Position numbers and translations under genes: made by a program
Shown here: positions 19,044 to 56,197 of the stretch, piece by piece
Position numbering within the stretch: position 1 is the stretch's first letter
Layout of the letters: the number at the start of each line of letters is the position of its first letter
Notes under the pieces: generated by a model
Databases searched by the model: none
The model's input: the letters and a program-made list of their open reading frames with translations, nothing else
Told to the model about the DNA's origin: nothing
Source of the DNA: Escherichia phage vB_EcoS_AVIO78A
DNA: 57,811 nucleotides
Sequence record: MZ726797.1
Reading direction: 5' to 3' (one strand)

Positions 19044-19391
19044 ATGGATCCGAACATCAGGGTTGCTACAGACGAATTCATTCGTCGCGCCCGTAAAATT
19101 CACGGTGATCGTTACGACTACTCATTCAGCATTGTTGAAGATAGTTCCAGTACAGTGGTTATTATTGACCGTGAAACTAATACAGTGTTTTTCCAGGTTG
19201 TCGCTGAACATCTGGACGGTGTTGAACCAGTAACCACTGCTGTTGAACCGGTAACGACTGCTGTTGAGCCGATCAAGAATCTTTCTGAGATATTCAGTAA
19301 CGTCATAAACAGCGTGTATCACCAGTGCAATTATTCATCTGAAATGTTAGAATTTAGTCATGTTGAAACAATACGAGGACAATCCCCGTGA
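19044..19391 (+). CDS. hypothetical protein with EPVTTAV tandem repeat
   Basis: ORF 19014..19391 trimmed to ATG 19044 with AAGAAGGG RBS. Confidence 0.5.
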   Translation: MDPNIRVATDEFIRRARKIHGDRYDYSFSIVEDSSSTVVIIDRETNTVFFQVVAEHLDGVEPVTTAVEPVTTAVEPIKNLSEIFSNVINSVYHQCNYSSEMLEFSHVETIRGQSP

Positions 19392-19798
19392 TTAACGTAA
19401 AAGTTAATAAGGTTGACAACTCACTACGTATGGTATTCGGTTGGGGTAGTATCTGTAAAAAACGTAATCAGGAGACAGGTCAGTTAGAAATTTACACAGA
19501 CACGGACAACGAGCAATTCCCCGAGGATGTCACTCTGAAAGCATGGCTGGACTTCATGAATTCTGATCAGCGCATCATGGACAATATGCACAATGAACAA
19601 CCTGTTGGGAAAGTTGTGTTTGCGTTCCCGATGACTGAAGACATTGCAGCAAGTTTTGGGCTGGTTGATAAACTGGATCAGACAGGCGTCATTGTTGGTA
19701 CGTTGATAACTGATGACGAAGTTTTGAAAAAGTTTCAGACTGGTGAATATACGGGATATAGTATCGGTGGAACTGCATATTATGAGGATGTGGAATAA
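19388..19798 (+). CDS. hypothetical head-module protein
   Basis: ORF track (GTG start overlapping previous stop); position before scaffold-like gene. Confidence 0.4.
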   Translation: MINVKVNKVDNSLRMVFGWGSICKKRNQETGQLEIYTDTDNEQFPEDVTLKAWLDFMNSDQRIMDNMHNEQPVGKVVFAFPMTEDIAASFGLVDKLDQTGVIVGTLITDDEVLKKFQTGEYTGYSIGGTAYYEDVE

Positions 19799-37476: not shown

Positions 37477-37861
37477 TGTGTTAATCACCGTTGTTGCAAC
37501 TGTTCTGGTATTAGGTGCCGGTGCTTATACATGTTATCACGCTGGGTATAAAGCACGGGTAAACGAAGAACGTCAGGAACGTTTAGAGGATGCACAACGG
37601 GAACAACAAAGGTTAAAAGCACAACAGGAACTTGCGGATGATGTACTTCGTGGTTTAGCTGACTGGTCGCAGAATACTAAAATCGTGGAAATACGACATG
37701 AAAAGACTAATACTGTTTTTCGTAACGAGTGTCTTACTTCTGAATATCAACGCTTGTACAACGAACGAGTTACCGAAGCAGAAGCCCGTTTATCAGGCCG
37801 CATTAGTTCAGAAGTGTCAGACCGAAAACCTTCCACGGCTGAACGGTCTGACAGGAAGTGA
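37463..37861 (+). CDS. i-spanin (Rz-like)
   Basis: N-terminal TM, charged coiled-coil body, contains embedded o-spanin ORF. Confidence 0.6.
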   Translation: MTTRSVLITVVATVLVLGAGAYTCYHAGYKARVNEERQERLEDAQREQQRLKAQQELADDVLRGLADWSQNTKIVEIRHEKTNTVFRNECLTSEYQRLYNERVTEAEARLSGRISSEVSDRKPSTAERSDRK

Positions 37862-37946
37862 TTCAACAGATGTTAATGACCAGTGGTTAGATATTTATTT
37901 CAAATGTGCAACTATTCACAACGCATTAGTAGACAGTCTTCAGTAA
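37698..37946 (+). CDS. o-spanin (Rz1-like lipoprotein) embedded in and extending past i-spanin
   Basis: signal peptide with INAC lipobox, alternate frame within 37463..37861. Confidence 0.6.
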   Translation: MKRLILFFVTSVLLLNINACTTNELPKQKPVYQAALVQKCQTENLPRLNGLTGSDSTDVNDQWLDIYFKCATIHNALVDSLQ

Positions 37947-38159
37947 ATCTTCAACCGACACCTCAATCCACGATGCGGGAACCGGATATTCAGTCCGGTA
38001 CATGAACAAGGATGTTCCTATCAACCCGTGTGGATCTGTTTTAATCCCTCGCATGTTCAACAACGGAAAAAACTGTTCACGCGTTTGTGGTAATCGTGCA
38101 AAGCGTCCTGTCGGGCGTTTAGCAGGATCCATAGGGTTGAATTCAACGATTGTGGACAT
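37926..38159 (-). CDS. hypothetical protein
   Basis: ORF track. Confidence 0.4.
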   Translation of the reverse strand: MSTIVEFNPMDPAKRPTGRFARLPQTREQFFPLLNMRGIKTDPHGLIGTSLFMYRTEYPVPASWIEVSVEDLLKTVY

Positions 38160-38664
38160 AACAATAACTCCTGTACGCTTGTCGTTTTATTTTCTGATAG
38201 TCGGAAACTTTTACAGATCTCGTTTTACATTCACCGATATGATGTGGATCGAAAACAAACATCACCTGTGAACGGTCATTTCCTCCTGCTGGTAACCCGG
38301 TGTCAGGATCTACAAACGCTATACGACCTTTAAATACCCATAGTTCTGAACAATGTGTCAGTGCTTTATGAAACCAGTCTGCAGACGTCATAGCGTTCAC
38401 AAGTAATAACGAACCAGTTCCCTGATGGATGGTGGTTATTATTTTATTAACCCAGGGAGACGGATCGCTGTATGGTGGGTTGCACCAGATGAACCCACCA
38501 CCATTACTTTGAACAATCGAATGCCAGTCTTTATTCAGACTATCGGTGATAAACAACGAACATTTAGCGTTAGAACCATCGGTACACACATCAAGAACAA
38601 GTGGGAATTCACGAGAAACGTTATCAATAAAATCCCACGGTGTTTCCCAGTTGTCTTTAGCCAT
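38143..38664 (-). CDS. DNA N6-adenine methyltransferase (phage Dam-type)
   Basis: ORF 38143..38991 trimmed to ATG 38664 (MAKDNWETPWDF); NPPY catalytic motif. Confidence 0.7.
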   Translation of the reverse strand: MAKDNWETPWDFIDNVSREFPLVLDVCTDGSNAKCSLFITDSLNKDWHSIVQSNGGGFIWCNPPYSDPSPWVNKIITTIHQGTGSLLLVNAMTSADWFHKALTHCSELWVFKGRIAFVDPDTGLPAGGNDRSQVMFVFDPHHIGECKTRSVKVSDYQKIKRQAYRSYCYVHNR

Positions 38665-39010
38665 GTTCCGGTACGCTCTCCACGCTGTAATAAACGGGGA
38701 TACCCAGACGTTCAGCTTCTGCAATTTCTGCCAGCGTACCAGATGAACGACGATAATCAGGAAGCACCAGAACAGCGTCACAGCGGCGCATAACTTCAAG
38801 CGTGCCTGACAGGTAGTATTCAGGTTGTATATTGCGTAAACCGCCGTCAAAGTCCCACAATTCGGTGTTCTTGTGAGGAATAACCGGGAACCATCCCGGA
38901 CGTTGTAAAGCCAGTCGTTTACCTGCCTGTTCAGCGCGTGACACGTTACGGGATGTTTTAAGCGCACAATCAGCACGATAAGGCCCGGCAATGTAACAGA
39001 GTTTAATCAT
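38657..39010 (-). CDS. nucleoside 2-deoxyribosyltransferase-like protein (DUF4406-like)
   Basis: ORF 38657..39040 trimmed to ATG 39010; MIKLCYIAGPY...CDAVLVLP...SSGTLAEIAEAERLGIPV. Confidence 0.5.
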   Translation of the reverse strand: MIKLCYIAGPYRADCALKTSRNVSRAEQAGKRLALQRPGWFPVIPHKNTELWDFDGGLRNIQPEYYLSGTLEVMRRCDAVLVLPDYRRSSGTLAEIAEAERLGIPVYYSVESVPEHG

Positions 39011-39350
39011 GGTTGTTTTCCTGCGTTTGTAAGAACACAATCATTGCGGCACGGAGTGGGTTAGCGTGAATAACACATGAGTCATCCGCATAAATCATTT
39101 CTGTCGCATCACCAGTAATTCCATCAATAGCAGCATTGTCAGGTAAAGCGATCCATGATGAATCTGTTGAAACAATACTAATTTTATTTTCAATAATAAT
39201 CGGCATTGCATCAGTCGGATTAGTGGTATATTTGAAACCGCCCCGTGACCAACAACCTTGTATATCTTTATCGTCAGCATGAACACCGTAAATAACTTTC
39301 AAAACAAGGCGATCAATATCTCTATCATTCATCTTACTGTAATCAGTCAT
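39003..39350 (-). CDS. hypothetical protein
   Basis: ORF track. Confidence 0.45.
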   Translation of the reverse strand: MTDYSKMNDRDIDRLVLKVIYGVHADDKDIQGCWSRGGFKYTTNPTDAMPIIIENKISIVSTDSSWIALPDNAAIDGITGDATEMIYADDSCVIHANPLRAAMIVFLQTQENNHD

Positions 39351-39879
39351 GACGATTCATCCCTTCTAACATGTCCCAGATAAGCGCAACACGACGCGGG
39401 TCAGTGCTGATAGTGTGTAGAGTTTCACATCCGTAATGCCACCCCCAGCGAACGGATAATTCTGACAGCAGATAACCACGGGAATTAGCCAGTTCAGCCA
39501 GTTCACCGGGTTTAAATGTCGTTGTATTAGGTTCTGTAAGAACACGAGTACCACAGATAGCGTCACTGATGCGCCACGGTTTCATCAGGTCATCAACTTT
39601 GTACCAGTTACTGATACTGATTTCAGATGTTCCCCAGCGTACAGCCAGTTTCAGACGTTCCTGACGGGCCGGGAACATTGGCATTTGTGGTAAACGCAGT
39701 TGGATCTGTTCTGCAGGTTCGAACATATCATCGTCTGTTAAACGAAATTCACCACGGTCATCAATATAAAAACCACGGGAACGACCATCACGGGTGAACC
39801 CATCAACACGGTTGTAAATTTTACCAGGAGTAAAGACACCAATCGGTGAACCAGCTACAAATTTGTGTGAAGTATGCAT
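39343..39879 (-). CDS. hypothetical protein
   Basis: ORF track. Confidence 0.45.
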   Translation of the reverse strand: MHTSHKFVAGSPIGVFTPGKIYNRVDGFTRDGRSRGFYIDDRGEFRLTDDDMFEPAEQIQLRLPQMPMFPARQERLKLAVRWGTSEISISNWYKVDDLMKPWRISDAICGTRVLTEPNTTTFKPGELAELANSRGYLLSELSVRWGWHYGCETLHTISTDPRRVALIWDMLEGMNRHD

Positions 39880-39918: not shown

Positions 39919-41775
39919 TTACCGAAGTGGTGCAACGAGTTTTTCAGCTTCTTTGATGTAAAAATCATAATTTAGCGTTGCCCGGTTAAAACGTTTCATG
40001 TCGTTGCACTCCGTGGTCAACCAACCTTTGCACACTGACATACGGCGCTCAGGCGCGTCAGGGTTCAGTTTCAGTGATTTTGCCAGTGGTGGCATGACTT
40101 TTGTCAACGGTGCACCATCTGTACTGACGTAATAACGGGTAATGTTCTGAACCTGTTTATCACCCCATAATAACTTGCTGTTACGCGGTACTTTCGTCAC
40201 CAACATAAAATCGTGAATGTCTTCGTGTGATGTTATAAAATCACGAATGTCTTTATTGTGTACCAGTGCTGCTTCAGCAGCTTTTGCGACAACCTGCATA
40301 CTGTGGTTTTGATGCCAACCCAGATCAACACTGTGACAATAAGCGCCTTTACGTTTAACCTTCTTACCACCTTCGTAAACAGCGATATAATTATTTACAT
40401 CGCGAATAAACATCACGTCATAAATCGCTTCTTCAAGCTGGAGTCTGGTTAATTTTTCCCACGCGTGACGAACCTGTTCTACTTGTTCGGTAAACACTCG
40501 TGGCACGTAAACCGTAAGACCATCTGTGTTAGCCTGGATCATGGACAAACCAGGGATTTTCAGAAGTTCTTCAGCCAACATACACAAAAGTAATTGTCCG
40601 TTAATCGTAATAGCCATTGTATAAGCAGGATCGTAGAACGGGCTGTATACGTTATTACTGTCACCATACACACCGTTTAACGCTAGTTTTAACATTGCAT
40701 TTTCTGGTGTACCTTTCGGGTAACTGGAACGCATGTCATAAACATTTTTATAAATGGTGCAAAATTGTTTACCCAGATGTGCTGGATAAAGTTCATTACT
40801 GATCGCAAGGTTCGGGTAAAAACTGGCAACGTCCAGATCGATGATCACATAATTTTCAGTGGACCTGATAGTTTGAGACTCAATAGACCCGTGGATACCA
40901 CCCGTACCAAAATCAAACGAGAACCCGTTAATGTCTGCGCTTAAATCCGTGAATACACCTTTTGTTTCAGTGATGACCTGTTGGCGTAACCAGTTAAGAA
41001 CACGATTAAATTCAGGCTGTTCAAAACGGACATAAGGGAAAATCACACTGTTCAATGCGATTGACGGTCTGTGCGTCTGTCGTGGTTTTCTACTACCCGG
41101 TTCGAAACATTGAATACCTGATTTTTCAAGTTCCATAATGAAATAGTCTTTACCGATTTTCGTGTCATTATGGTTCATGAAATTACGACCGTATTTAGCA
41201 GAAAGTTCACGACGAAAATCTATCAGCTTTTTACTGTGTTTATAAAACATCAAAGTCGCTTTTAAATCGTGTATCAGATATTGACGAAGCGTATCAATTT
41301 GAGAATCGGTTAAATAAGTCCCTGGCGTAAATGGGAGGTCTTCAATGTTTTCCATTCTCATGTTGAATTCAAGTGTTTTCAGACTTGTTCGTTTTGCCTG
41401 ATTGTCGAAATGATGAATTTTATATAAATCAAGCTGGGGAACTATCCAGTCTTTTTCCCACACCATATGAGCAAAACGATTTTCATCACCAGCGTTAATT
41501 ATCGAATCACCTTTTTTATAAATGTCTGCGTTGGTGATATACATGATATTGTTCAAAATAGAATGCTGAACAGGATAGTCGTAACCCAGATTGTTATAAC
41601 CAACTTCTTCATCACGATGTTCACGTAAATATTCTGTGAACAGGTAAAAAGCCTGACGATCATCGCGACGATGTGAAATCTCAAAAATATAAGGTGTTTC
41701 AGTTAACGCGTGAATAGCACCGAACAGAAAAACATTAGGATAGTTTTCAATATCGTGAACGTAAGCATCTGACAT
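39919..41775 (-). CDS. DNA polymerase (compact, family-B-like motifs)
   Basis: DLDVASFYPN (motif A-like), KLALNGVYGDS (motif B-like), ANTDGL (motif C-like), N-terminal DxE and YxxxD exonuclease-like motifs. Confidence 0.55.
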   Translation of the reverse strand: MSDAYVHDIENYPNVFLFGAIHALTETPYIFEISHRRDDRQAFYLFTEYLREHRDEEVGYNNLGYDYPVQHSILNNIMYITNADIYKKGDSIINAGDENRFAHMVWEKDWIVPQLDLYKIHHFDNQAKRTSLKTLEFNMRMENIEDLPFTPGTYLTDSQIDTLRQYLIHDLKATLMFYKHSKKLIDFRRELSAKYGRNFMNHNDTKIGKDYFIMELEKSGIQCFEPGSRKPRQTHRPSIALNSVIFPYVRFEQPEFNRVLNWLRQQVITETKGVFTDLSADINGFSFDFGTGGIHGSIESQTIRSTENYVIIDLDVASFYPNLAISNELYPAHLGKQFCTIYKNVYDMRSSYPKGTPENAMLKLALNGVYGDSNNVYSPFYDPAYTMAITINGQLLLCMLAEELLKIPGLSMIQANTDGLTVYVPRVFTEQVEQVRHAWEKLTRLQLEEAIYDVMFIRDVNNYIAVYEGGKKVKRKGAYCHSVDLGWHQNHSMQVVAKAAEAALVHNKDIRDFITSHEDIHDFMLVTKVPRNSKLLWGDKQVQNITRYYVSTDGAPLTKVMPPLAKSLKLNPDAPERRMSVCKGWLTTECNDMKRFNRATLNYDFYIKEAEKLVAPLR

Positions 41776-41855: not shown

Positions 41856-42887
41856 TCAGTAACCGTTACCGTTGAGAAAATTCGGGGCCGGGGTGGTCAT
41901 TACCATATAACCGTTAGCGATCAGTTGTTCATCGTTCCAACCTTGCGCAATAAACTGTTCGTAAGTTGCACCACCTGCTTTTTCAGTCATTACTTTTACA
42001 GGTGCTGCCGCTGGTGTAGGCGTTGCTACAGGTGCTGCCGCTGGTGTAGGCGTTGCTACAGGTGCTGCCGCTGGTGTAGGCGTTGCTACAGGTGCTGCCG
42101 CTGGTGTAGGCGCTGCTACAGGTGCTGCCGCTGGTGTAGGCGTTGCTACAGGTGCTGCCGCTGGTGTAGGCGTTGCTACAGGTGCTGCCGCTGGTGTAGG
42201 CGTTGCTACAGGTGCTGCCGCTGGTGTAGGCGCTGCTACAGGTGCTGCCGCTGGTGTAGGCGCTGCTACAGGTGCTGCCGCTGGTGTTACGCCGATCGGA
42301 CGTGCACCTTCAGGCATTGCAGGAGCAGCACCGAACACAGATGCAGGAGCCGGACCAGAAATGATTTCTTCACCCGCATAAAGCAATTGCGCCATTTCCA
42401 TGTTGATATATACGCCAGCCTGATTACCTGTACGACCGTTTGCAACAGATGATCCGCTGATACGGTAGTAATAACCTTTTTTCGCCAGATTTTTATCAAT
42501 AACTGGCTGGTACGCTGCGTTATAAACCGGACACGCATCAATAGCCACGTTGCGTGAGAAACCAATTACCCAGTGACCAGCATAACCAGTTTTACTCGCA
42601 TGTTTCGGATCGTCACCGTTAATAATTTTCCATGCGAAAGTGGGTTGTTGTGGTTCGCCGTTCACATAGTGTGAGTTAGCCACTCGCATAATCGCCTGGA
42701 ATACCGCACCCAGTTCACCTTGTTCTTCCCACCAGTTCGCCGCTGTTTTAGGAAACGCCAGGCCAACCCACCAGTTGTGTTTTTCAGGTGCTAACGGTTT
42801 ATTTTCGTGGTCATGAGTGTTGATATCGAAAAAAGAACCGCCAACCAGACGACCAACCGGAGTTACAAAAGATTCTTTCTGTGCCAT
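41856..42887 (-). CDS. ssDNA-binding protein-like (DUF2815-like N-domain) with Pro/Ala repeat linker and conserved C-terminal motif
   Basis: VGRL...FPK pattern; PAAAPVA[TA]PT x ~9.5; C-terminal TYEQFIAQGWNDEQL. Confidence 0.5.
   Translation of the reverse strand: MAQKESFVTPVGRLVGGSFFDINTHDHENKPLAPEKHNWWVGLAFPKTAANWWEEQGELGAVFQAIMRVANSHYVNGEPQQPTFAWKIINGDDPKHASKTGYAGHWVIGFSRNVAIDACPVYNAAYQPVIDKNLAKKGYYYRISGSSVANGRTGNQAGVYINMEMAQLLYAGEEIISGPAPASVFGAAPAMPEGARPIGVTPAAAPVAAPTPAAAPVAAPTPAAAPVATPTPAAAPVATPTPAAAPVATPTPAAAPVAAPTPAAAPVATPTPAAAPVATPTPAAAPVATPTPAAAPVKVMTEKAGGATYEQFIAQGWNDEQLIANGYMVMTTPAPNFLNGNGY
41996..42288. repeat. tandem 30-bp repeat (~9.5 copies) encoding the Pro/Ala linker
   Basis: GGTGCTGCCGCTGGTGTAGGCG[T/C]TGCTACA repeated contiguously. 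Confidence 0.9.
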
Positions 42888-51167: not shown

Positions 51168-51375
51168 GTTCGGTGCTGTAATCAAAAAAGAAGACCGTTA
51201 TGCACATATTGATACCCGGATTACCTGGGTTGATATCAGTGAAGCTACCCTGTTCAGTTCAACTTACATGGCTGGAGTTGCACTTAAAGCACTTCGCGAT
51301 CAGGGTTTCAATTGTAAAAAAGTAACAATCGCGCCTGTTAAAATCACACGAATTGTCGAGGAGACAGAAGGATGA
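51160..51375 (+). CDS. hypothetical protein
   Basis: ORF track. Confidence 0.4.
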   Translation: MTEFGAVIKKEDRYAHIDTRITWVDISEATLFSSTYMAGVALKALRDQGFNCKKVTIAPVKITRIVEETEG

Positions 51376-51767
51376 TAATAGTCGTCACTGGTGGTCGTGA
51401 CTTCAACGACAGAACAGCAGTGTTTTCCGCGTTAGGACTACTTCACAAACAATTTCCGATTACCGAACTAATCGAAGGTGGTGCGTCAGGTGTTGATAAC
51501 CTGTGTAAGCAGTGGGCGCAATTACACGGTATTCCTGTGCGTAGTTGCCCGGCAGCATGGGACGATCTGACTGTACCGGGTGTGGTTGTAAAACAAGGTA
51601 AGTACGGGCCTTATAACGCTGTTGCAGGTCATCAACGCAATCAGGCAATGTTAGAGGGTGAACCACGGCCTACATACGGTGTTGTGTTCCCCGGTGGGCG
51701 AGGTACTGCTGATATGCACCGTCGCATGTTGAAAGCTGGTTTAACTGTGTGGGTTCCGTATGGTTGA
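51372..51767 (+). CDS. SLOG-superfamily (DUF2493/LOG-like) nucleotide-binding protein
   Basis: MIIVVTGGRDF, GGASGVD, FPGGRGT Rossmann-like motifs. Confidence 0.5.
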   Translation: MIIVVTGGRDFNDRTAVFSALGLLHKQFPITELIEGGASGVDNLCKQWAQLHGIPVRSCPAAWDDLTVPGVVVKQGKYGPYNAVAGHQRNQAMLEGEPRPTYGVVFPGGRGTADMHRRMLKAGLTVWVPYG

Positions 51768-52182
51768 TAGTTTCAGTGGTGAATATCGTTGGTTAAGTAA
51801 TTTTTGGCCTGTACCTGTCAACTATGATGGGTACGTTTTTAAAACGGTGGAACATGCTTATCAAGCGCTGAAATGTAAATATTATAATGACTTTCTGGAG
51901 GTTAAAAACTGTGACACACCCGGTCAGGCTAAACGTCTTGCACGTCAAAAAATCATGCGTGACGACTGGGAACAAATTAAAACTCAGGTGATGTTTTATC
52001 TTCTGCAGCAGAAATTTTCTAACCCTAAAATGTGGGCTTTACTCGTTGCCACAGGTGATCAACCAATCGTTGAAGGTAACGAGTGGGGTGATACATTCTG
52101 GGGTGTTTGCAGTGGTAAAGGTGAAAATCATTTAGGTAAAATGATAATGGCTATTCGCGCCGGATATCAAACTTACCTTTAA
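51760..52182 (+). CDS. NADAR-domain protein (YbiA-like)
   Basis: WLSNFW near N-terminus, EHAYQALK, FWGVC - pattern typical of NADAR/DUF1768. Confidence 0.55.
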   Translation: MVDSFSGEYRWLSNFWPVPVNYDGYVFKTVEHAYQALKCKYYNDFLEVKNCDTPGQAKRLARQKIMRDDWEQIKTQVMFYLLQQKFSNPKMWALLVATGDQPIVEGNEWGDTFWGVCSGKGENHLGKMIMAIRAGYQTYL

Positions 52183-52253: not shown

Positions 52254-53021
52254 ATGGCTAACATTAACTCCATTCGCAAGCTGTCTGATACCGATAAAAC
52301 CAACGTAAAACGTGGTAACGCATATCGCATTGATCCGCGTATTATCAAGATTCGTCCAGGACATAACCCACGGGGTGTGTTTACCGACAACTACTGGGAA
52401 ACTGAAGCAGCACTGGCACACATTGAAAACTTTCGTCAGGCTTATACCAATGGCGATTTCGTTCCACCCATCGTGGTACAGGTTGTTGACGGTGTTCCGT
52501 ATGTTCAGGATGGTGAGCATCGTTTACGTGGTGTATTGGCAGCTATTAAAGCCGGGACGCCGATTCTGACAGTAGATGTTGTTGAATCATCTGGTGATGA
52601 ACTACAACAGACCCTGACACTGTTAAAAGGTAATGAAGGTAAACCGTGGTCACCTGTTGAACGTGCTGTTATTTACGGTCGTTTCCGTTCATATGGCATG
52701 AGTGTTGAGCAGATCGCTACACAGGTTGGTAAAACCGTCCAACACGTTTACGAACAACTGAATATTCTTGATATGCCGCTGGAACTTAAACGCCGTATCC
52801 AGAACGGTGAAATCAGCGCATCAGCAGCCATTCGTCAGTTTAAAGCAGGTGATAAAGAACCAGTAGTCACGCGTCGTCCGCCTGCTAAACTGGTACGGTC
52901 TGCAGTGGAAGCAATCCGTGGTGAATGGTCTGTAACCCGTTCGGAAGGTGGTAAAGTCCTGGTTGAACTTACCGCTGAACAGTTTGAAGCGTTAAAAGCA
53001 CTGAAGGAGCACCAGTTATGA
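52254..53021 (+). CDS. ParB-like nuclease-domain protein
   Basis: DGEHRLRG motif typical of ParB/Srx N-terminal domain. Confidence 0.55.
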   Translation: MANINSIRKLSDTDKTNVKRGNAYRIDPRIIKIRPGHNPRGVFTDNYWETEAALAHIENFRQAYTNGDFVPPIVVQVVDGVPYVQDGEHRLRGVLAAIKAGTPILTVDVVESSGDELQQTLTLLKGNEGKPWSPVERAVIYGRFRSYGMSVEQIATQVGKTVQHVYEQLNILDMPLELKRRIQNGEISASAAIRQFKAGDKEPVVTRRPPAKLVRSAVEAIRGEWSVTRSEGGKVLVELTAEQFEALKALKEHQL

Positions 53022-55408: not shown

Positions 55409-55631
55409 AAACATGGCTGCAAGTGGTCTGTCAGGCCGTATCTTTTACGGTACGATGGAAACAAAAGACGGTGGTCAGTCTGGTAAATGGTTAGCAGGAA
55501 AGCAAGACGTTACTGATATGGCGATCCGTGCAGTTGCTGAACATTGTCATCTGACAGGAAACGAATATTCATTTACGCTTAACGACGGTCGTGTGATTAC
55601 ACTGGCAGTAACAGAGGTACAACCATCATGA
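55398..55631 (+). CDS. hypothetical protein
   Basis: ORF track. Confidence 0.45.
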   Translation: MKIKNMAASGLSGRIFYGTMETKDGGQSGKWLAGKQDVTDMAIRAVAEHCHLTGNEYSFTLNDGRVITLAVTEVQPS

Positions 55632-56197
55632 CACCTGAACAATTCGCAACAGCAGCACACGGTGATCAACTTCGTAAGTACACCAACGACCCATATGTGA
55701 ACCACTGCCGGAACGTTGCTGAACTGGTTAAACGCTATGGTGGTACGCCGGATATGGTTACCGCTGCCTGGCTACATGACGTCGTTGAAGATACGCCCGT
55801 GACTGTGGGTGATGTGTGTTCGCAATTCGGTGAAACTGTGGCACGTTATGTTGATCAGCTTACTGATGTGAGTCGTCCACACCACGGCAACCGCGTTAAA
55901 CGTAAAGCACGGGATATCGACCATTTATCACTGGTTGAACCTGTGGTGAAAACTATAAAACTGTGTGATCTACTGGATAACACATCTTCAATTGTCCGAC
56001 ACGATCCGAAGTTTGCTGTAACATACCTGGCTGAAAAACAACTCATGCTTGCTCACCTGTCAGACGCAAGCAACCAGGAGCTATACGCGCTTGTTGAGCG
56101 TGAATTGTTCAAAGCCAAATACAAACTAACGAATGTCCAGTTGACCGCGTTTGACAAACACTACGACGCACTGGTTAAAGCGATGGGGGAGTTGTGA
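55628..56197 (+). CDS. HD-domain phosphohydrolase (RelA/SpoT-type hydrolase fold; possible (p)ppGpp or signalling-nucleotide hydrolase)
   Basis: HGDQLRKYTNDPYVNHCRNVA...AAWLHDVVEDT matches the HD motif pattern. Confidence 0.6.
   Translation: MTPEQFATAAHGDQLRKYTNDPYVNHCRNVAELVKRYGGTPDMVTAAWLHDVVEDTPVTVGDVCSQFGETVARYVDQLTDVSRPHHGNRVKRKARDIDHLSLVEPVVKTIKLCDLLDNTSSIVRHDPKFAVTYLAEKQLMLAHLSDASNQELYALVERELFKAKYKLTNVQLTAFDKHYDALVKAMGEL

Follow-up and report, generated by a model that had tools for sequence, protein, structure and literature searches.

We identified in the genome of Escherichia phage vB_EcoS_AVIO78A (sequence record MZ726797.1), a 9NA-like (Nonanavirus/Sashavirus) siphophage of Escherichia coli, two overlapping minus-strand genes that are probably separate accessory genes at the end of the DNA polymerase operon. 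One encodes an orphan N6-adenine DNA methyltransferase (methylase) of 173 amino acids (aa), and the other a 117-aa enzyme resembling 2'-deoxynucleoside 5'-monophosphate (dNMP) N-glycosidases. The whole stretch of DNA analyzed, 57,811 nucleotides, is referred to as the window, and the features discussed are collected in Table 1. The original prediction for this locus described a 'Dam-type' methylase gene co-transcribed with a 'nucleoside 2-deoxyribosyltransferase-like' gene and proposed anti-restriction methylation, together with a possible nucleotide-pool or base-modification function; the observation was confirmed, and the interpretation is supported in part.

The region is 95–97% identical at the DNA level to those of Sashavirus BDX09P1 and 536P12 and of Escherichia phages KarinMuster_Bas82, PDP46 and vB_EcoS_PJ16, and ~86% identical to those of Salmonella phages 9NA and Sasha. 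KarinMuster_Bas82 has the same gene pair, with a 117-aa protein 97% identical to that of the window. In PDP46, PJ16 and Bas82, both products share 96–98% identity with the window proteins and are already annotated, in PDP46 as 'DNA N-6-adenine-methyltransferase' and '2'-deoxynucleoside 5'-phosphate N-hydrolase 1'. Both are ordinary phage accessory genes of known families, annotated in near-identical phages and of low novelty. Homologues of both proteins, down to 30–40% identity, are present in hundreds of phage records, which indicates that these are real genes rather than chance open reading frames (ORFs).

The predicted interval, 38143–39010, proved exact, running from the final base of the methylase gene's stop codon (38143–38145) to the A of the ATG of the 117-aa gene (39010). 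The overlap of the two genes was likewise recovered: the stop codon of the 117-aa gene (38657–38659) falls within the beginning of the methylase gene, which has its ATG at 38664. This 8-bp overlap suggests translational coupling. Shine–Dalgarno-like sequences are found upstream of the starts of the 117-aa gene and of a 77-aa gene that follows the methylase, and ahead of the methylase start there is only a GGAG at a distance, consistent with such coupling. In promoter and terminator scans of the region, sites were no more numerous than in shuffled sequence. Given the gene overlaps and the lack of a convincing promoter or terminator, co-transcription of the pair, as originally proposed, is likely, although it is inferred only, and the two genes are probably transcribed and translated together. 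A 282-aa form of the methylase ORF from a mechanical ORF list (TTG at 38991) was rejected as an over-extension; relatives annotate the 173-aa form.

The 173-aa protein matches Pfam family PF05869 ('Dam') over residues 2–143 (E = 7e-31; 107.6 bits against a gathering cut-off of 28.1) and contains the sequence WCNPPYS at residues 60–66, with the predicted NPPY motif at residues 62–65 (codons 38470–38481). In an alignment of 28 methylase homologues, D25, N62, P63, P64, Y65 and R114 are invariant. The protein belongs to PHROG 111, and its best PADLOC match is 'orphan methyltransferase'. These features support its placement as a bona fide member of an N6-adenine DNA methyltransferase family, with no restriction partner seen nearby. 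The label 'Dam-type' holds in the sense of the phage T1/HP1 type (PF05869) but not of the E. coli/T4 Dam family, PF02086 (MethyltransfD12), to which the Pfam scan gave no methylase match at E ≤ 0.01. Like the 'Dam' enzymes of T1, HP1 and Stx phages (PF05869, TIGR01712), the window enzyme is small, lacks a separate target-recognition domain, has the NPPY motif and the invariant Asp25, and is encoded by an orphan gene in the early/replication region. However, it is only ~30–33% identical to the T1-like and Stx-phage enzymes, and its score against NCBIfam TIGR01712 (phage_N6A_met), 92.6 bits, falls just below the equivalog cut-off of 97.05, so that functional equivalence to characterized members is not assured. 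Apart from five near-identical phages of E. coli, phage matches reach at best 35–39% identity, in Vibrio phages. We found no solved structure detectably related to the methylase by sequence. The composition of the gene is not anomalous (GC 0.418 versus 0.437 for the genome). In KarinMuster, a protein identical to the product of window positions 19388–19795 (+), Bas82_0034, is annotated 'DNA methyltransferase'; it matches PF14550, the XkdF-like phage serine protease family, and this 'second DNA methyltransferase' is probably a mis-annotation, leaving the 173-aa enzyme as the only methylase recognized in the window.

Characterized PF05869 members (those of T1, HP1 and VT2/933W) methylate GATC, and GATC specificity is plausible for the window enzyme as well; a literature search on PF05869 specificity, DUF4406 and Nonanavirus methyltransferases yielded nothing usable. 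GATC occurs at 210 sites in the window, 0.81 of the Markov expectation and within the range of other 4-bp palindromes, but such counts do not discriminate because all short palindromes are mildly depleted. Across the whole window, CTAG, GGCC and AGCT are strongly depleted (0.29, 0.51 and 0.63 of expectation), and CCGG is enriched (1.44). Digestion with DpnI or MboI would be uninformative with phage grown on a Dam+ host. In the mechanism that we propose, the methylase most likely modifies replicating phage DNA, with GATC as the probable target, and the phage DNA would thereby be shielded from restriction enzymes that act on the site when it is unmethylated and, possibly, from MutH.

Comparison with related phages identified the methylase gene as an exchangeable cassette. 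In blastn alignments, homology of the window to 9NA and Sasha ends at 38160 and restarts at 38676, and homology to Klebsiella phage Carvaje is interrupted between 38161 and 38661; these breakpoints coincide with the body of the methylase gene. The same slot holds non-homologous PF01555 methylases of 393 aa in 9NA and Sasha, 259 aa in Carvaje, and 410 aa in Proteus phage PM-CJR and one metagenomic relative, and again a PF05869 enzyme in a more distant relative with a 67% identical 117-aa protein. In PJ16, an extra 146-aa gene, absent from the window, is inserted between the methylase and the 77-aa gene (L004 2767–3207, equivalent to window positions 38155–38160). The encoded protein matches the macrodomain of the antitoxin DarG (E = 4e-69 in PADLOC; E = 9e-20 for Pfam Macro) and is a candidate anti-DarT factor. 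BDX09P1 carries an extra gene at this point too, as judged by length. The slot of the NinX-like gene upstream of the pair is also variable, PJ16 having an unrelated 75-aa gene (L004 4055–4282) in the place of window positions 39031–39336.

The methylase slot thus gathers counter-defense genes, namely methylases and a DarG-like macrodomain gene, which supports an anti-restriction role and fits a small counter-defense hot spot in 9NA-like phages. The methylase would act as a host-matched counter-defense cassette, with the slot filled by unrelated methylases in relatives. Hence, the anti-restriction part of the original prediction gains support from the orphan status of the enzyme, from its exchange for unrelated methylases and from the DarG-like gene in one relative. 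Orphan methyltransferase cassettes of other phages similarly lack a restriction partner and are swapped between related phages on different hosts. Compared with these, the exchange seen here is unusually clean, involving the same gene boundaries, at least three enzyme architectures and two conserved overlapping neighbors.

The 117-aa protein matches both PF24963 (DUF7768; 36.4 bits, cut-off 26) and PF14359 (DUF4406; 30.4 bits, cut-off 22), the latter as expected from its original description as DUF4406-like, and its homologues have the same domains. It is a member of PHROG 355. Its match to PF05014 (Nuc_deoxyrib_tr) is below the cut-off of 28.8 bits (17.7 bits, E = 0.004). A profile of 87 homologues searched against the PDB matched PA1492 of Pseudomonas aeruginosa best (1T1J, DUF1937; E = 0.005) and gave E = 0.29 each for the cytidine 5'-monophosphate N-glycosidase BcmB and the Trypanosoma brucei deoxyribosyltransferase. 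The AlphaFold2 model (predicted local distance difference test score, pLDDT, 96) consists of alternating strands and helices, and PA1492 was again the best match in Foldseek (probability 0.91); similarity to DNPH1/MilB-type members is weak in both sequence and fold. PA1492 is of similar size, but as a structural-genomics protein of unknown function, it adds nothing on the activity of the 117-aa protein.

In an hhalign alignment with human DNPH1, residues Y6, R12, H46, T70, S89 and E95 of the 117-aa protein correspond to Y24, R30, H56, D80, S98 and E104, respectively. The DNPH1 query sequence agreed with PDB chains (E = 1e-93) and with the residue numbers in PMC10603095. We place weight not on this match as such but on its agreement with three independent HMMER alignments and on residue conservation; the BcmB and T. 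brucei transferase alignments show the same residue register. Among the 87 homologues, Y6 is kept in 86, R12 in 81, H46 in 85, and S89 and E95 in all 87. Position 70 is Thr in 79/87 and Asp in 5/87, and Glu72, two residues further on, is conserved. The segment S-x-G-x-x-x-E is also kept, with Ser89 six residues before the nucleophile position Glu95 (codon 38726–38728).

In DNPH1 and MilB, the Glu forms a covalent sugar-phosphate intermediate and the Ser (DNPH1 S98, MilB S97) binds the 5'-phosphate; the Arg (MilB R23, equivalent to DNPH1 R30) binds phosphate in MilB, and the Tyr that selects deoxyribose in DNPH1 is replaced by Phe, for ribose, in MilB (PMC10603095). Like DNPH1/Rcl, a 2'-deoxynucleoside 5'-phosphate N-hydrolase, and the CMP/hmCMP N-glycosidases MilB/BcmB, the 117-aa protein has a Tyr after strand 1, an Arg six residues on, a His after strand 2, the Ser and the Glu. 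Unlike the 117-aa protein, DNPH1 has an Asp (D80) as the general acid and is longer, with a helical extension at the C terminus that provides a second Ser for phosphate binding. An informative comparison is DmtZ of PurZ0 phages, a small phage enzyme of the same superfamily for which dAMP hydrolysis has been demonstrated (PMC12884076). As in the 117-aa protein, a triad position departs from Asp in DmtZ: the catalytic acid position is Asn in both DmtZ (Asn77) and the T. brucei enzyme (PMC12884076). Furthermore, true transferases hold the nucleoside 5'-OH with an Asp or Asn that DmtZ and the hydrolases lack (PMC12884076), and the 117-aa protein has Ser89 at this position. DmtZ acts on a dNMP as part of nucleotide-pool control (PMC12884076), as we propose for the 117-aa protein. 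In contrast, a dUTPase-like gene is linked or fused to that for DmtZ, which serves 2-aminoadenine genomes (PMC12884076), whereas in the window, the dUTPase gene lies 24 kb from the 117-aa gene and PurZ is absent.

The DNPH1/MilB-type pattern of Tyr, Arg, His, Ser and Glu favors a dNMP N-glycosidase that works on the nucleotide pool over a transferase or a modifier of DNA bases, and we read the 117-aa protein as a likely 2'-deoxynucleotide N-glycosidase in which the acid position is occupied, unusually, by Thr. It would most likely remove the base from a 2'-deoxynucleoside 5'-monophosphate via a covalent Glu95–deoxyribose-phosphate intermediate and work on the nucleotide pool during replication. 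This mapping of active-site residues onto DNPH1/MilB-type N-glycosidases makes the nucleotide-pool function in the original prediction plausible. The 117-aa protein belongs to the nucleoside deoxyribosyltransferase superfamily, but a true transferase is less likely, given the sub-threshold PF05014 score and the hydrolase-type Ser89. Cleavage of S-adenosylhomocysteine, considered as a link to the methylase, was rejected since the conserved Tyr and Ser indicate a 2'-deoxy 5'-phosphate substrate. PADLOC returned no match for the 117-aa protein.

We further examined whether the neighboring genes are functionally linked. In the 9NA-like and Gorganvirus lineage, a methylase always directly follows the 117-aa gene, and on shared contigs the 117-aa protein and the PF05869 methylase co-diverge (identities 97/97, 78/66, 67/69, 65/60 and 63/53%), so the pairing is of long standing in part of the lineage. 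The picture differs in nine contigs that carry more distant 117-aa homologues: a DNA methylase gene is found within 3 kb in 3/9 and is adjacent in 0/9, and the neighbors include genes for polymerase A, RNase T-like and 5'-3' exonucleases, a MazG-like protein, helicases, RecT, RusA and single-strand-binding protein. In Chi-like phages, a DUF7768 homologue (~40% identical) ends an early operon with PAPS-reductase-like and DUF3268 zinc-finger genes (Salmonella phage 37, L007 1935–4423; Proteus phage pPM_01, L009 1317–4465). In pPM_01, a PF05869 methylase gene lies four genes upstream of this homologue; a gene annotated 'PAPS reductase' in this phage in fact encodes a PF05869 methylase. We read the 117-aa gene as a replication-module gene whose adjacency to a methylase is lineage-specific. 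It is the conserved member of the pair, and we place it with the replication module rather than with the methylase.

The 77-aa gene follows every type of methylase in the 9NA-like relatives, including, as an uncalled ORF, in L013 (4979–5227). In two metagenomic relatives its reading frame is continuous with that of the PF05869 methylase (fusion proteins P0123 and P0125, of 246 and 244 aa, respectively), and the fused and separate states are a 1-nt indel apart. The fusion hints at joint action, or it could be a tolerated accident of overlapping reading frames. The AlphaFold2 model of the 77-aa protein has a pLDDT of 92; sequence and fold searches gave no significant match (the best being a NOP2 region at E = 0.32, with Foldseek E > 1), and PADLOC gave none.

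These observations bear on several alternatives to two separate genes with a dNMP N-glycosidase-like enzyme. The 117-aa, methylase and 77-aa proteins could form one functional module in which, for example, the hydrolase-like enzyme handles deoxynucleotides that carry a methyl group (for instance, N6-methyl-dAMP released when host or phage DNA is degraded) and the 77-aa protein assists the methylase on DNA. The order of the three genes with overlapping ends is constant in 9NA-like phages and Gorganvirus whatever the methylase family, and the in-frame fusions, the co-divergence and the operon that the Chi-like homologue shares with a PF05869 methylase or PAPS-reductase-like gene point in the same direction. 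We nevertheless consider such a module quite unlikely: non-homologous methylases are swapped in with the flanking genes unchanged, which is easier if the neighbors are independent of any particular methylase, the distant contigs never have an adjacent methylase, and the fusion, a single-base indel between overlapping ORFs, may be incidental. Similarly little probability attaches to the broader version, a three-gene unit tied to DNA methylation in which the enzyme clears or recycles methylated deoxynucleotides or guards against methylase-sensing defenses and the 77-aa protein serves as an accessory factor for methylases in general. A true nucleoside 2-deoxyribosyltransferase that salvages by base exchange is the function implied by the name used in PHROG 355 and many phage GenBank records, and the weak PF05014 match and the presence of the T. 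brucei and Leishmania transferases among the weak PDB matches agree with it. The PF05014 score is, however, below the cut-off, the invariant Ser six positions before the nucleophile is the 5'-phosphate binder of DNPH1 and MilB (PMC10603095), the Arg equivalent to MilB R23 and DNPH1 R30 is kept, and the Asp/Asn that stabilizes the 5'-OH in transferases is absent from DmtZ and the hydrolases (PMC12884076), so that transferase activity is unlikely. A counter-defense factor that destroys or binds a nucleotide immune signal or toxic nucleotide, or that poisons deoxyribosyltransferase-like retron effectors triggered by phage methylases, would suit a neighborhood with methylases and a DarG-like macrodomain gene and a genome with NADAR, YAcAr/SLOG and HD_4 genes elsewhere. 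Phage Dcm and adenine methylases trigger retrons, and the preprint that describes this names Ec86 and discusses a deoxyribosyltransferase. The GATC methylase of phage Bas51 is one such trigger. Against this role, which we regard as very unlikely, the 117-aa protein has no PADLOC match and no retron effector among its PDB sequence or fold matches, it retains invariant catalytic Tyr, Ser and Glu that a decoy would not need, and its distant homologues lie in replication modules beside polymerase, exonuclease and MazG-like genes.

For the methylase, the main role could lie outside restriction, in blocking MutH or in the control of replication, packaging or expression. Dam of phage P1 controls packaging, the host possesses a Dam of its own, and the genome shows no avoidance of GATC. 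In addition, KarinMuster is still sensitive to the restriction systems tested (PMC11990801). Replacement by unrelated methylases, probably of other specificity, on other hosts is hard to square with site-specific regulation and is typical of defense evasion, which leaves a main role of this kind doubtful. The base-modification function in the original prediction fared worse. Loose precedent for a pair that produces a non-canonical base or places it in virion DNA comes from superfamily enzymes that transfer deoxyribose phosphate to unusual bases (DmtZ, PMC12884076). However, KarinMuster_Bas82, which carries the same pair, is markedly sensitive to restriction-modification and has no recognizable extra modification locus according to its authors (PMC11990801), and this speaks against hypermodified DNA. 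Among the families listed when 83 ORFs were scanned with Pfam, no base-synthesis genes were recognized, and the 117-aa protein has the hydrolase Ser. Nothing points to a modified DNA base, and hypermodification appears exceedingly improbable.

Several points also weigh against the reading that we prefer, a GATC-directed anti-restriction methylase next to a separate dNMP N-glycosidase-like enzyme. GATC as the target is a guess because the methylase is only 30–39% identical to others outside a small clade and scores below the equivalog cut-off. E. coli already methylates GATC, so it is not obvious what a phage would gain from a GATC methylase. The sensitivity of KarinMuster to the restriction systems tested implies that any protection by the methylase is narrow (PMC11990801). 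The Thr at the position of the catalytic Asp in 79/87 homologues may mean that the activity or chemistry of the 117-aa protein differs, and its hhalign match to DNPH1 is not significant by itself. Finally, the constant adjacency of the 117-aa gene to methylases of any family, together with the co-divergence of the two proteins, leaves room for a functional link.

Table 1. Features of the window in and around the methylase/117-aa gene pair, with the evidence for each.
Feature	Coordinates	Strand	Evidence
117-aa gene, DUF7768/DUF4406 family, DNPH1/MilB-like active-site pattern	38657..39010	-	Pfam, PHROG 355, homologue alignment, AlphaFold2, PDB profile matches (1t1j, 4jen, 2a0k), DNPH1 mapping
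173-aa orphan N6-adenine DNA methyltransferase, PF05869	38143..38664	-	Pfam, TIGR01712, PADLOC, invariant residues
8-bp overlap ATGGCTAA, 117-aa gene stop inside methylase gene start	38657..38664	-	Read from sequence
Exchangeable methylase cassette	38161..38675	.	blastn breakpoints; Pfam assignment of alternative methylases
Conserved 77-aa gene; overlaps methylase 3' end by 17 bp	37926..38159	-	PHROG 25980, alignment, fusions P0123/P0125, AlphaFold2
NinX-like gene; stop overlaps 117-aa gene start by 8 bp	39003..39350	-	PF10765, E = 3.3e-5
178-aa gene, between NinX-like gene and DNA polymerase gene	39343..39879	-	
DNA polymerase gene (618 aa), head of same minus-strand gene run	39919..41775	-	DNA polymerase annotation in relatives
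dUTPase, physically unlinked to pair	14356..14856	-	PF00692, E = 1.7e-18; 98% identical to Bas82_0019

The pair had been described as next to the polymerase gene; the two are on the same strand, but the NinX-like and 178-aa genes intervene. The 618-aa polymerase had no Pfam match at E ≤ 0.001. The dUTPase predicted elsewhere in the genome was found. At the opposite end of this gene run, an o-spanin frame (37698–37946, +) and the 77-aa gene are convergent with a 21-bp overlap, so the lysis and polymerase operons have no space between them for a terminator. The gene at 41856–42887 (-) encodes a Gp2.5-like single-strand-binding protein in which a Pro/Ala-rich unit, PTPAAAPVA/T, forms a long tandem repeat, and a tandem repeat is marked at the same place in the Sasha record. 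Further away, adjacent overlapping genes for a YAcAr (SLOG-family) protein (51372–51764, +) and a NADAR-domain protein (51760–52179, +) lie just upstream of a ParB-like gene (52254–53018); their products may act on ADP-ribose or on other derivatives of nucleotides. Additionally, positions 55628–56194 (+) encode an HD_4 (RelA/SpoT-type HD hydrolase) domain protein (E = 1e-14).

To conclude, for this phage the outcome is mostly housekeeping: 'Dam-type' becomes T1/HP1-type, 'dNMP N-glycosidase-like' is favored over 'nucleoside 2-deoxyribosyltransferase' for the 117-aa protein, and modified DNA is no longer suggested. The DUF7768/DUF4406 family is common in phages, with 213 phage records found by tblastn, and has no tested member; the residue map, with its unusual Thr in place of the acid, offers a concrete assay for it. 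With conserved overlapping genes on either side and a DarG-like insertion beside it, the methylase slot illustrates cassette exchange in nature in a clean form. Since phage methylases are known retron triggers, the presence and type of methylase in a therapeutic or model phage affects its host range.

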